IMG/VR virus record: IMGVR_UViG_2718218228_000004 | Direction: 5' to 3' (one strand) | Length of the DNA: 39,530 nt | From: a virus | Taxonomy: Duplodnaviria; Heunggongvirae; Uroviricota; Caudoviricetes | Shown here: positions 15,001-21,000 of the stretch, one piece after another | Layout of the letters: every line of letters begins with the position of its first letter | How positions within the stretch are numbered: the stretch's first letter is position 1 | Made by a program: the position numbers

Positions 15001-18000
15001 AAAGCGCCCCGTAATTTTAGAGGCGCAGGATGTGTTGATAACCTACAGAGGAAAACTACCGGGAATAATTACGGGTTCTCTGAAGACTCCACCGCTGGCC
15101 TGAAGACTTAACATATCCAGGGATTTGAAATCGATAAACCCTGATAAATATCCATGAACGCAAAAATCAGATACGGCCTGTCGGCTGCCGTTCTGGCGCT
15201 GATTGGTGCAGGGGCGTCTGCGCCTGAAATCCTCGACCAGTTTCTTGACGAAAAAGAAGGTAACCACACCACGGCATACCGTGATGGTGCGGGTATCTGG
15301 ACCATCTGCCGCGGTGCCATCCTGGTGGATGGTAAACCTGTCGTTCCGGGCATGAAGTTGTCGAAGGAAAAATGCGACCAGGTTAACGCCATTGAACGTG
15401 ATAAGGCGCTGGAGTGGGTGGAGCGCAATATTAAAGTACCGCTGACCGAACCCCAGAAAGCGGGGATCGCGTCATTCTGTCCGTACAACATTGGTCCCGG
15501 TAAGTGTTTCCCGTCGACGTTTTACAGACGAATTAATGCAGGTGATCGCAGGGGAGCGTGTGAGGCGATTCGCTGGTGGATTAAGGACGGTGGCAGAGAC
15601 TGCCGTATTCGCTCAAACAACTGCTACGGTCAGGTTTCACGGCGTGACCAGGAGAGCGCGCTGGCGTGCTGGGGAATTGACAGATAAGCAGAATATTTTG
15701 CTGAAAAATGCGGTTTGCTCACACTGGCGGATAACACGAAATCCTGCGAACTGGCAAAAACTAAGTGAATAAAAGTAAAACCCCGTTTGTTGGCCGCAAA
15801 CGGGGTTTTGTGTTTCTGACCTTGAGTAAGGCAAGGGAGAACATGGGAAAGTATAAACGAATTCTGTTGAGATTGACTATGAAAAACGGCCTTGAACTGA
15901 AAGCGCCTGTAACTGATGACGTCAGCAGAGCGCTGGCTTTTGCTATTAAGTGGGTGGCGGTCGGTATTGCTGTGTCTCCGATGCTGTATGGGCTGGCAAA
16001 ACTGGTCATTGCGTTGAAATCGTGAAGAGGATTAAGCATGTCAGACAAGCTCATAACGCTGGCGAAGATCCTCTGTGTAATCGTCGGCATTTCATTTTCA
16101 CTAATGCTGGTTGCTATTTGCTTTTCCACTGCCTGGCGCGTCTTAACTTTGTCATGGCTGGTGGGGTGAGGGGGATATGAACCGCCCCGGAAATCCTGGA
16201 GACTAAACTCCCTGAGAAAGAGGTAAACAGGATGACTAAAAATACTCGTTTTTCCCCCGAAGTCCGTCAGCGGGCGATTCGTATGGTTCTGGAAAGTCAG
16301 GATGAATATGACTCACAGTGGGCGGCAATTTGTTCCATTGCCCCAAAGATTGGCTGTACGCCGGAGACTCTGCGTGTCTGGGTTCGCCAGCATGAGCGGG
16401 ATACCGGGGGCGGTGATGGTGGGCTCACCAGCGCTGAACGTCAGCGTCTGAAAGAGCTGGAACGTGAAAATCGTGAACTGCGCCGCAGTAACGATATCCT
16501 TCGCCAGGCTTCCGCTTATTTTGCGAAGGCGGAGTTCGACCGCCTCTGGAAAAAATGATGCCACTGCTGGATAAGCTGCGTGAGCAGTACGGGGTCGGAC
16601 CGGTATGCAGCGAACTGCATATTGCCCCGTCAACGTATTACCATTGTCAGCAACAGCGACATCATCCGGATAAACGCAGTGCCCGTGCGCAGCACGACGA
16701 CTGGCTGAAGAGAGAGATACAGCGCGTATACGATGAAAATCATCAGGTGTACGGTGTGCGTAAAGTCTGGCGTCAGTTGTTACGGGAAGGAATCAGGGTG
16801 GCCAGATGTACAGTGGCACGTCTCATGGCGGTTATGGGACTTGCCGGTGTTCTCCGGGGTAAAAAGGTCCGTACGACCATCAGCCGGAAAGCCGTTGCCG
16901 CAGGCGACCGCGTAAACCGTCAGTTCGTGGCAGAACGACCTGACCAGCTGTGGGTGGCTGATTTTACTTACGTCAGCACATGGCAGGGCTTCGTCTATGT
17001 GGCGTTTATCATTGATGTGTTTGCCGGATACATCGTGGGGTGGCGGGTCTCATCGTCTATGGAAACGACATTCGTGCTGGATGCGCTGGAGCAGGCGTTG
17101 TGGGCCCGTCGTCCGTCTGGCACCATCCATCACAGCGATAAAGGCTCTCAGTATGTGTCACTGGCCTATACGGAGCGACTAAAAGAAGCCGGATTACTGG
17201 CATCAACAGGGAGTACAGGCGACTCGTATGACAACGCGATGGCTGAGAGCATCAATGGTCTTTACAAAGCGGAGGTAATACACCGTAAGAGCTGGAAAAA
17301 CCGTGCAGAAGTGGAACTGGCCACACTAACGTGGGTGGACTGGTATAACAATCGACGATTGCTGGGAAGGCTGGGCCATACTCCTCCGGCAGAAGCAGAA
17401 AAAGCTTATTATGCTTCCATCGGAAACGATGATCTGGCAGCCTGAGTTCACAGATAAAACACTCTCCAGGAAACCCGGGGCGGTTCAATATGAACCGTGT
17501 TCTGTGTGTGGTGATTATTGTCCTGCTGGTAGCCTGTGGTGTGCTTAGTCTGGGGCTGAATCATTACCGCGATAACGCCATTACCTACAAAGCGCAACGC
17601 GATAAAAAAGCCAGTGAGCTGAAGCTGGCGAACGTGACAATTACTGATATGCAGGTACGCCAGCGTGATGTCGCTGCACTTGATGCCAGATACTCGAGGG
17701 AATTAGCCGATGCGAGAGCTGAAAATGAAACTCTGCGTGCTGATGTTGCCGCTGGTCGTAAGCGCCTGCGCATCAACGCCAACTGTCCAGGCTCCTTGCG
17801 TAAAGCCCCCATCACCTCCGGCGTGGATAATGCAACCGGTCCCCGACTGGCAGAAGCCGCTGAACGGGATTATTTCATCCTCAGAGAACGGCTGATGGCA
17901 ATGCAGAAGCAACTGGAAGGAGCACAGGAATATATCCGTACCCAGTGTATACCGTGATGTTTTGTTATGAAGGTGTTACTGGTAACGTTAAGGTAATTTA

Positions 18001-21000
18001 ACAAAGAGTCAGTTCCGGACTTTATAGTGTGCTCAGTTCATGGCCAAAAACGATTTCTGTGATAAATATTTTGAATATTATTTACAGATAAATGAAGTTG
18101 TTCGCATGGATGGAAATATTACAATAGAGTATGAAGTATATGTCCGTATTGTATGGGCAGAGAAGGCAAAAACACGGTAATTCCTTGTGTTGCCATTATA
18201 CCTGATTGGCAGAATAGTTGTTTGGTTTTGAGTATATAGTCAGCGTTTTTTGTTCAGTAATAGCTCTCTCAAAAAATAATAAAATAAGGTGATTATTTGG
18301 GTTTATTATTTGGTTTTTTTGTGTGTTGTTTTGTTGTTTTGTTGTTTTTCTGTGATTTATTTTTTATTGTTATTTCATTAAAGGAAGGTAAATTCAGGAT
18401 AGCAGTCTGTAGATAATCGGAGGTCACTTATGCTACATGATCACCTGGCAGAATGTCTGGAGAAAAAAGGACTGTACCGGAGAGCAGCTGAACGATGGGC
18501 AAAAGTGATGGTACAGCTAAGTGATGACCAGAAAAGAAAAGTGGCGGCACAGAAACGAGCAGAGTGTTTGCGTAAGGCGCGCCGGACTCCGGTTTCACCG
18601 ATGAACCTGACAGAAATAAAACAAGCGGTCAACAGACTACATTCTGAGTTGGGAATGGGATTTGAAGAGCGGCGGGTATTCCGACGATATAAAGGGACAG
18701 GAGAACAGAATACGTCCGGAAACGCGCGGTCAAAAAAATGCTAAAAAATATCTGAGAGCGTTATTGCCTGTTACCATAAGAAAAAGCGACTTTAGTGGTC
18801 GCTTTTTGTGTCATATATAAGTCGTTTAAGTAAACCTGTCTGAACAGGTGCTCTGGTCGTGTTTGTCTTTGTTGGGTACAAATTGAGCATGTTTTTCATT
18901 AATTAATCTTCTTCTGCAGGCTTCAATAACCCACGCTGAAAAATTACCTGAACCTTTCTGATCAAGAGCGATGTTAATTTGTTCAATCATTTGGTTAGGA
19001 AAGCGGATGTTGCGGGTTGTTGTTCTGCGGGTTCTGTTCTTCGTTGACATGAGGTTGCCCCGTATTCAGTGTCGCTGATTTGTATTGTCTGAAGTTGTTT
19101 TTACGTTAAGTTGATGCAGATCAATTAATACGATACCTGCGTCATAATTAATTATTTGACGTGGTTTGATGGCGTAGATGCACGTTGTGACATGTAGATG
19201 ATAATTATTATCATTTTGCGGGTCCTTTCCGGCGATCCGACAGGTTACGGGGCGGCGACCTCGCGGGTTTTCGCTATTTATGAAAATTTTCCGGGATCCA
19301 TGTCCGGTTTCTCTTCAAGTTAACTATATGAAAAATATAAAAACAGGTCTTCTGTGAACCGGACATGAACAAAAAACAGACATGTAAACCGGACATGACC
19401 GGTTTTGTTGTGATTGTGAGGTGAGAGTTTTTGCGAGGTGAGGAGTGGCTACGCAGACTGAAGTTGCCAGGCATTTAAGTCTGACCGATCGCCAGCTTCG
19501 CAGATTGCAGAAATTGCCGGGTGCCCCGATATCGAATAAGCGAGGGCAACTGGATCTGGATGCCTGGCGCGATTTTTACATATCGTATCTGAGGAGAAGT
19601 AAAAACGATGTGCCTGATGGCGATAGCGAAGACGACTATGAGGAGAAATTGCTTATTGCCAGATGGGAACTGACAGCAGAACAGGCTGTTACACAGCAGT
19701 TAAAAAATGAGGTGTCAAAAGGAAAACTGATTGACACCGGGTTCTGTATTTTTGCCCTCAGTAAGCTGGCAATGGCGTTATCCAGTACGCTTGATTCCAT
19801 CCCTTTATCCATGCAGCGACAGTTTCCTGATTTAACACCGCGCCATCTTGACCATCTGAAAACCCTTATTGCTAAGGGGGCAAATCAGTGTGCGCGGGCA
19901 GGGGATAAATTACCGGATTTACTTGATGAATATATCAGAGCAACAACTGAATAATATGATGAGCGCTGTCACAACTGCATTACAGCCCCTGATAAGGGCA
20001 TTGCCGGTGACGCCAGTTGAATGGGCTGATCAAAATTATTATCTGCCTAAAGAATCTTCATATGGTGAGGGCGAATGGAAAACGCTGCCATTCCAGATCG
20101 CCATCATGAACAGTATGGGGAATGATCAGATCCGCACTGTTAATCTGATTAAATCTGCCCGTGTTGGCTATACAAAGATGTTGCTGGGGGGGGGGCGGGT
20201 ATTTTATTGAGCATAAATCCCGAAACAGTCTGCTTTTTCAGCCCACGGATTCTGCCGCTGAAGATTTTATGAAGTCTCACGTGGAGGCGACGATTCGGAA
20301 CGTGCCATGCCTGAAAGACCTTTCCCCATGGCTGGGTCGTAAACATCGTGACAATACTCTCACGCTGAAACGCTTTTCATCGGGCGTCGGTTTCTGGTGC
20401 CTGGGCGGCGCTGCCGCCAAAAACTACCGTGAAAAATCCGTTGACGTGGTCTGCTATGACGAACTTTCCTCGTTCGAGCCGGATGTCGAAAAAGAGGGCT
20501 CGCCAACCCTGCTGGGGGATAAGCGTATTGAGGGGTCGGTGTGGCCAAAATCCATTCGCGGCTCGACGCCTAAAATCAAAGGCACCTGCCAGATCGAAAA
20601 AGCCGCTAACGAGTCGGCGCATTTTATGCGTTTTTATGTGCCCTGCCCGCACTGTGGGGAGGCGCAGTATCTGAAATTTGGCGATGAGTCCACGCCTTTT
20701 GGGCTTAAATGGGAGAAGGACAGCCCTGAAAGTGTTTTCTACCTCTGTGAACATCATGGCTGCGTGATCCATCAGTCTGAACTGGACCAGAGCAACGGGC
20801 GGTGGATCTGTGAAAACACGGGCATGTGGACCCGTGACGGTCTGACGTTTTTCAGCGCCCGGGGTGATGAAATTCCGCCGCCGCGCTCCATCATGTTCCA
20901 TATCTGGACGGCGTACAGTCCGTTCACCACCTGGGTACAGATTGTCTATGACTGGCTGGATGCACTGAAAGATCCCAACGGCCTGAAAACCTTTGTGAAC

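Follow-up and report, generated by a model that had tools for sequence, protein, structure and literature searches.

A pchC regulator module between Rz and cos in an Sp14-type prophage of Escherichia coli O157:H7

A virus sequence of 39,530 nucleotides, IMG/VR record IMGVR_UViG_2718218228_000004 (hereafter the window, meaning this whole stretch), carries a small regulatory gene between its lysis gene Rz and its cos site, preceded by a long tract of AT-rich DNA. By nucleotide alignment this gene is pchC, one of three near-identical group-1 PerC homologues (pchA, pchB, and pchC) of Escherichia coli O157:H7, and by its collinearity with prophage Sp14 of strain Sakai the window is a defective lambdoid prophage of the Sp14/CP-933U type from E. 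coli O157:H7. The explanation that we favour, and hold as a whole with high confidence, is that this pchC lies on the Sp14 module, that it encodes an activator of LEE1/ler in the enterocyte effacement locus (LEE), and that it would be expressed from a weak promoter of its own together with read-through of late transcription, with possible gating of translation at the Shine-Dalgarno (SD) sequence and an end of transcription at a hairpin. Gene, position, and role are all already known, and there is nothing new about pchC itself. The features on which this explanation turns are as follows.

18430..18744, plus strand: pchC coding sequence (CDS), ATG start, 315 bp, 104 amino acids (aa); PerC family, group-1 Pch regulator.
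17958..18429, plus strand: AT-rich Rz-pch intergenic region, 472 bp, 31.6% GC; probably upstream regulatory DNA, promoter, and short 5' untranslated region (UTR).
18342..18370, plus strand: predicted sigma-70 promoter of pchC, with a -35-like TTGTTT (18342-18347), a 17-bp spacer, and a -10-like TATTGT (18365-18370).
18420..18424, plus strand: SD sequence of pchC, GGAGG, predicted to be partly paired with codons 5-6 (ACCU, 18443-18446).
18781..18807, no strand assigned: hairpin terminator between the convergent pchC and ylcI-like genes, with an 11-bp stem AAAAAGCGACU / GGUCGCUUUUU.
17948..18907, plus strand: pch cargo module (moron), about 0.96 kb, its extent taken relative to lambdoid prophages without pch.

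An earlier sequence-only reading of the window had described a 104-aa open reading frame (orf) with a PerC/Pch signature and had suggested a protein search against that family. The orf is present at 18430-18744, and when the search was run its product gave a full-model match to Pfam PF06069 (PerC), with residues 1-89 aligned to positions 1-89 of the 90 in the model, an E-value of 2.2e-44, and 150.1 bits (cutoff 22.6); identical copies are labelled 'PerC family transcriptional regulator' in RefSeq. Each of the three group-1 pch loci of Sakai, namely pchA (Sp4), pchB (Sp11), and pchC (Sp14), was aligned with the window. The three CDSs vary only at nucleotides 16, 172, and 183, which are stated to be the paralogue-specific single-nucleotide polymorphisms (PMC5931665), and the window has the pchC states C16, A172, and A183. 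Its CDS is nucleotide-identical to ECs_2737, the Sakai gene at the corresponding position, for which the name pchC is also used in PMC2241611; this identity bears out the earlier reading of the orf as a LEE regulator of the PerC/Pch family. From 17940 to 18830 the sole difference between the window and Sakai pchC is one extra 8-bp repeat unit, and in the alignment of copies the CDS is intact, without visible decay. A search of solved structures found no relative of the PchC protein in the PDB. As far as sequence can tell, every defining feature of the PerC family and of group-1 Pch is present, and this includes the genomic context: Rz, ylcI, cos, and Nu1 flank pchC, and the effector gene tccP stands at the end of the same prophage.

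The function of this protein has been established elsewhere. Cloned PchC raises expression of ler::lacZ in K-12 from some 1,577 Miller units to some 7,783, about a 5-fold rise (PMC5931665), so that the activation of a ler reporter by the cloned gene, which the sequence-only reading had offered as a check, was already in print with a positive result for the identical protein. The pchC transcript rises about 8-fold under SOS-inducing sulfamethoxazole-trimethoprim (SMX-TM), and after SOS induction pchC is the dominant group-1 transcript, at 90.7 reads per kilobase per million (RPKM) versus 7.7 and 11.4 (PMC5931665). All of pchA, pchB, and pchC are needed for full LEE expression (PMC4456613, PMC6265319). 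LEE1 is activated by Pch only if its promoter is silenced by H-NS/StpA/Hha/YdgT, and Pch lowers the occupancy of LEE1 and of effector loci by H-NS, an anti-H-NS mechanism shown for PchA; occupancy at espJ-tccP, in particular, is lowered by expression of PchA and Ler (PMC4764244).

The slot in which pchC lies is bounded by phage backbone genes, listed here.

17490..17957, plus strand: Rz, the upstream backbone gene; PF03245 at E=2e-46; 52.8% GC.
17710-17895, plus strand: Rz1, embedded in Rz; from the orf list, with a PF06085 match.
18826..19050, minus strand: YlcI/YnfO-family (DUF3950) gene, 74 aa, convergent with pchC; PF13132 at E=1e-19, NF041551, phrog_949.
19250..19294, plus strand: cos site, beginning GGGCGGCGACCT; identical to the lambda cosN/left end, with 0 mismatches over 45 nucleotides.

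The pattern behind the cos match at 19250 is what we take to be the lambda left-end sequence. With Rz ending at 17957 and the lambda-identical cos at 19250, the gene lies where the sequence-only reading had placed it, between Rz and cos; a detail that the reading left out is the minus-strand ylcI-like gene between pchC and cos. A Nu1-type small terminase gene follows at 19445-19954. Homology of the backbone to prophages lacking pch ends at 17947, 10 bp before the Rz stop codon, and restarts within the 3' portion of the ylcI-like gene, at 18908. The same Rz-ylcI slot in other E. coli prophages holds a 108-aa TonB-family protein, a 71-aa hypothetical protein, or a 46-aa hydrophobic peptide, and it is a cargo hot spot. 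These boundaries, and the presence of other cargo elsewhere, agree with the earlier description of the locus as a moron. The unit is present in some related phages and absent from others between conserved backbone genes, its composition deviates strongly, and it has a terminator hairpin; its putative promoter is predicted from conserved hexamers and was not called by the consensus scan. By its slot and distribution the pch unit is a classic exchangeable moron, composed of AT-rich upstream DNA, a putative promoter, a gene, and a terminator. The hairpin at 18781-18807 folds at -17.3 kcal/mol (z=-1.9) and is unchanged across the aligned copies apart from a 1-nucleotide deletion in one (locus L007); because its arms include an A-run and a U-run, it is potentially bidirectional.

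The DNA ahead of pchC stands out in composition. Its GC content of 31.6% compares with 53.3% for the window, 52.8% for Rz, and 48.6% for pchC, and only 0.06% of the 472-bp tiles of the window are as AT-rich (the minimum, 31.1%, is at 17946). Seven runs of A or T of at least 5 bases occur in it, and GC content falls to 21% between 18281 and 18379. The AT-rich stretch of roughly 470 bp that had been pointed out from the sequence is thus essentially the most AT-rich tile of its length in 39.5 kb. No RefSeq/PGAP annotation lies under 17958-18429, and no Rfam family was found in the region even at E<=5.

Most of this DNA does not appear to be transcribed leader, as the earlier description of a 'long leader' would have it. 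A weak promoter about 60 bp before the ATG, from which transcription would start near 18377 and leave a 5' UTR some 50 nucleotides long, is suggested by the hexamers TTGTTT and TATTGT, both of which are kept in strain A25, the most diverged E. coli copy, despite a rewritten spacer. More diverged pch genes were found in E. albertii, in Escherichia sp., and on plasmid pDEC5B-4, with protein identities of 76-90%. Their DNA is homologous to the window only from 26-70 bp before the ATG, each has a -10-like hexamer, CATTAT or TATTAT, 52-60 nucleotides before the ATG, and the unrelated DNA farther upstream is also AT-rich (26-33% GC in the last 150 bp). Because homology is shared only near the ATG, where the -10-like hexamer also lies, the bulk of the 472 bp is likelier to be promoter or regulatory DNA upstream of the gene, and 'long leader', in the sense of a transcribed 5' UTR, is probably a misnomer.

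Copies of the region differ at two places that concern us here, of which the second is a repeat.

18313..18348, plus strand: T-rich 8-bp tandem repeat tract, unit GTTTTGTT, 4.6 copies (Tandem Repeats Finder).

Six substitutions within 25 bp (18088-18112) set the pchC-type upstream region apart from the type found with pchA, pchB, O26, and ML35. This cluster may represent a patch of gene conversion or a regulator site that has diverged; outside it the distal upstream region is almost invariant. The repeat tract at 18313-18348 has one 8-bp unit more than that of Sakai pchC, which gives an intergenic region of 472 rather than 464 bp. The 472-bp form occurs in only 10 of 688 records, and it looks like a lineage marker rather than hypervariation.

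Translation of pchC may be subject to a control described for its paralogue. The pchA mRNA has an auto-inhibitory structure between the SD and an anti-SD, relieved by the small RNA (sRNA) DicF under low oxygen (reviews PMC7769764, PMC7873438, PMC7308464). From the predicted start near 18377 into the CDS, pchC and pchA have three differences only, at CDS nucleotide 16, 18382, and 18401, and the segment from SD to ATG is identical in the two. RNA folding gives the pchC SD a mean probability of being unpaired of 0.39, with the predicted partner at CDS nucleotides +15 to +17 (P about 0.6), versus +25 to +29 in pchA. Partial sequestration of the pchC SD is thus predicted and fits the published pchA structure, with the fold itself unestablished as the partner varies. 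A duplex between DicF and pchC (41 bp, -46.7 kcal/mol, at 18477-18534, computed with RNAduplex) was considered as a candidate and rejected, as it lies within the background of 716 window tiles (mean -36.7, standard deviation 5.5, minimum -50.3 kcal/mol). DicF is encoded on Sakai Sp4 beside pchA (positions 733-784 of the Sp4 locus L014; Rfam 76.9 bits), and no Rfam or pattern match to it was found on the Sp14-type locus; dicB is present on Sp14.

Taken together with the literature, these features suggest the following scheme. In a lysogen, pchC would be transcribed from the weak AT-rich sigma-70 promoter with its -10 at about 18365-18370, yielding a 5' UTR of about 50 nucleotides, while the remaining 400 bp or so of AT-rich DNA would serve as upstream regulatory or nucleoid-protein-binding DNA and not as leader RNA. 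Upon SOS induction, Q-antiterminated late transcription may also read into the gene: pchC runs in the direction of the late operon and the scanner called no terminator-like site between Rz and pchC, so late transcription should enter it, and such read-through would explain the published 8-fold induction. Translation is possibly gated by sequestration of the SD, as published for pchA, and transcription would end at the hairpin at 18781-18807. The product, as has been published, is a small DNA-binding protein that activates LEE1/ler; Pch proteins bind the LEE1 region and reduce occupancy by H-NS and StpA, thereby turning on ler; Ler then activates the LEE type III secretion system, and Ler and Pch together act on effector loci outside the LEE, including espJ-tccP of the same prophage.

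Several observations weigh against parts of this scheme. The consensus promoter scanner made no call at 18342-18370, so that the promoter is weak by sequence. The predicted SD-sequestering partner differs between homologues. An insertion sequence (IS), IS629, lies between the late promoter and late genes on one side and Rz and pchC on the other, and may alter late read-through into pchC. Control of LEE under standard conditions is credited to PchA and PchB more than to PchC (PMC13012123). And no data on H-NS binding at, or hns-mutant expression from, any pch promoter were found in PMC4764244 (text and supplements) or in the other literature searched. The last of these bears equally on a reading to which we give an even chance, namely that the 472-bp stretch is an H-NS-silenced promoter region in which an H-NS polymer keeps pchC off until counter-silencers such as LrhA, Lrp, or LeuO, or specific conditions, relieve it. 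The stretch matches the AT-rich DNA of H-NS promoters, with the lowest-GC tile of the window and its A and T runs; the unrelated DNA upstream of the diverged pch genes is equally AT-rich, at 26-33% GC; and silencing here would fit the genome-wide coverage of O157 prophage virulence loci by H-NS (PMC4764244). A butyrate sensor built as PpchA-pchA-PLEE1 functions only in a delta-hns host, although the silenced element there could be PLEE1 (PMC7279287). The H-NS nucleation motif TCGATAAATT, however, has one match with 2 mismatches in the region, no more than the density across the window, and AT-rich DNA between genes is a general trait of horizontally acquired cargo. That H-NS silences the promoter of pch itself is plausible on this composition, and such silencing would complement the explanation favoured above rather than exclude it. 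The reading of the stretch as a true long 5' leader, with a promoter just after Rz and a riboregulatory structure or sRNA, we regard as quite unlikely. Conservation among copies is no lower in the distal 280 bp (17958-18240) than in the CDS, and published post-transcriptional control exists for pchA, but the conservation is explained by recent common origin (all copies have at least 85% identity throughout), the diverged pch genes share nothing beyond -70, and the published anti-SD sits in the CDS and not in a long leader. Nor is there a promoter-like site near 17958-18100, the only scanner match being one of 9/12 at 18190-18218, or any Rfam match in the region.

The distal part of the same stretch contains a short orf.

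18040..18180, plus strand: 46-aa orf inside the AT-rich region; full-length match to phrog_2157, E=1e-35.

That this orf is a real small-protein gene co-transferred with pch seems very unlikely to us. It is intact in all copies examined, has been called by gene callers in several genomes, and matches phrog_2157 over its full length at the E-value given. Against this, it has no SD sequence, copies differ by 8 non-synonymous and 2 synonymous substitutions, and its aa identity (85-87%) is below its nucleotide identity (about 93%). No homologues outside the pch-linked copies were found in phages or plasmids, it has no Pfam or NCBIfam match, and PGAP leaves it unannotated. We rejected it as a gene despite phrog_2157, on the missing SD, the 8:2 ratio, and the want of independent homologues, and conclude that it is probably not one. 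A further reading concerns pchC itself, which could be a largely redundant and weakly expressed paralogue, a passenger locus contributing little to LEE expression in the strain of the window. Optimal LEE expression is attributed to PchA and PchB (PMC13012123), control by LrhA has been described for pchA and pchB (PMC4456613), and the prophage is defective, with an IS629 standing 3 bp before Rz. On the other side, PchC has full activity on ler in K-12 and its transcript heads group 1 after SOS induction (PMC5931665), and its CDS is intact, without visible decay. We consider a passenger role possible but doubtful. The strain-specific changes could also matter in another way: the 8-bp unit and the IS629 may have rewired pchC expression in a sublineage of O157:H7, uncoupling it from late transcription or from activator input and feeding the known variation in LEE expression between lineages. 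The extra unit is directly upstream of the predicted -35, and would shift sites farther upstream by about three-quarters of a helical turn. Either change might conceivably affect pchC output; rewiring on the scale of a sublineage appears to us unlikely. Activation of LEE1/ler by a pchC with its own weak promoter and late read-through thus remains the explanation that we prefer.

The assignment of the window to an Sp14-type prophage is clear from alignment. It is collinear throughout with Sakai Sp14, at 99.9% identity over 1-16184 and 98.5% over 17488-39530, and the 9 kb around pchC are 100% identical to E. coli O157 strain 350 (NZ_CP018243.1). The sequence-only reading had also held that the prophage carries an effector, and the window does end in one.

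38517..39530, minus strand: tccP/espFU effector gene at the prophage end, its translation having proline-rich 47-aa repeats; a member of the Pch/Ler regulon.

The same gene is annotated at the equivalent site in strain 644-PT8 and in Sakai Sp14. The second copy of IS629/IS1203 in the window, at 16179-17487 on the plus strand, has gone in 3 bp ahead of the Rz ATG, duplicating 3 bp of target (ATA), and contains orfA (16232-16558), orfB (16555-17445), and an ALIL frameshift pseudoknot (16513-16629). Its insertion replaces the SD region of Rz; it is absent from Sakai Sp14, and the arrangement with IS629 before Rz is covered by only about eight complete genomes.

Other genes of the prophage are disrupted. 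Two orfs, 19869-20210 and 20161-21855, share the coding of the terminase large subunit, for which the annotation of 644-PT8 gives a frameshift; the J tail-tip gene is likewise broken into 32547-34469 and 34472-36076; and the major capsid gene is annotated as truncated. With its terminase frameshift, capsid truncation, and split J, the prophage looks defective. Between cosN and the small terminase gene, at 19299-19397, the motif CCGGACATG occurs three times, once inverted (3 observed versus 0.35 expected). These copies are probably the cosB terminase-binding (R) sites of the Nu1 variant, whose N-terminus is unlike that of lambda Nu1. At the junction of the early and late regions (6663-6837, 9753-9999, and 10773-10945) there are a hok/sok locus with its sok RNA, three tRNA genes, and an sRNA of the STnc100 family; the tRNAs are Ile-Arg-Arg, as in other O157 lambdoid prophages.

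Of 5,426 complete E. coli genomes, 673 (688 records) carry the 787-bp feature, upstream region plus CDS, the median number of copies in a genome being 3; the hosts include O157:H7, O55:H7, O26, O111, O121, and O145, and other isolates without a serotype label. With the 472-bp upstream region as the sole query the same 688 records and 673 genomes are recovered as with the CDS, so the upstream DNA and the gene travel as one unit. Fifteen copies among the complete E. coli genomes are plasmid-borne. Strain SCPM-O-B-7615 offers one such case, an IncFII plasmid of 102 kb on which the Rz-pch module (locus L018, 2033-4173) lies among IS3 elements and beside fragments of nleH and espS. A scan of genome contigs for relatives yielded only two, from E. 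albertii and Escherichia sp. The homologue of E. albertii NBRC 107761 (L012, 3001-3279) has 90% identity and a stop after residue 92; within the 4 kb available it has no Rz or terminase flanks, and it keeps an AT-rich upstream region and the conserved 70 bp or so before the ATG.

The significance of these genes is well recognised. Pch regulators link prophages to the chromosomal LEE island and to prophage-borne effectors in enterohaemorrhagic E. coli, and thereby to the control of colonisation; the link between Pch and LEE has been established biology since 2004. In the present case a prophage-borne regulator also acts on the effector cargo of the same prophage. The sequence-only reading picked out, from the raw sequence, a virulence regulator that is both real and important, and the correction that we would make to it is that the upstream DNA is probably for the most part promoter and upstream region and not a long leader.

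The closest known system is pchC itself (ECs_2737) on Sakai Sp14. The order of genes shared with the window is Q, tRNAs, IS629, holin, lysozyme, Rz, pchC, ylcI, terminase, and onward to tail fibre and tccP, and the CDS and its flanks (17940-18830) are the same in both apart from the 8-bp indel; the equivalent gene of EDL933 is on CP-933U. The window differs from Sakai Sp14 in the extra 8-bp unit (472 versus 464 bp) and in the second IS629, 3 bp before the Rz ATG. The two paralogues PchA (ECs_1091, Sp4) and PchB (ECs_2182, Sp11) are likewise 104 aa each and are 1-2 residues removed from PchC. Their genes occupy the same site between Rz and cos behind about 465 bp of AT-rich DNA, with about 97% identity to the window over the whole module. 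They differ from pchC by the substitutions at 18088-18112 and in the T-rich tract 60-150 bp before the ATG, which is rewritten, especially in pchB, where the rewritten tract contains a consensus TATAAT; LrhA, according to the literature, regulates the paralogues differentially.

More distant comparisons can be made outside this group. PerC, encoded on plasmid pEAF of enteropathogenic E. coli (EPEC), belongs to the same Pfam family and has the same target, LEE1/ler, with about 47% identity to PchC over residues 2-88 (tblastn, e.g. NC_010862.1). Unlike PchC, it is plasmid-borne, the third gene of the PerA-driven perABC operon, and about 89 aa in length; it does not have the basic tail at the C-terminus, nor is it carried as a phage moron with a promoter of its own. 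In position, the nearest parallel is with lambda bor and other morons between Rz and cos, which use the same slot between lysis cassette and cos, are AT-rich, have their own terminator, and are exchangeable between related prophages. The difference is one of orientation and role: lambda bor, on the opposite strand, codes for a serum-resistance lipoprotein, whereas pch runs in the direction of the late operon and its product regulates transcription.

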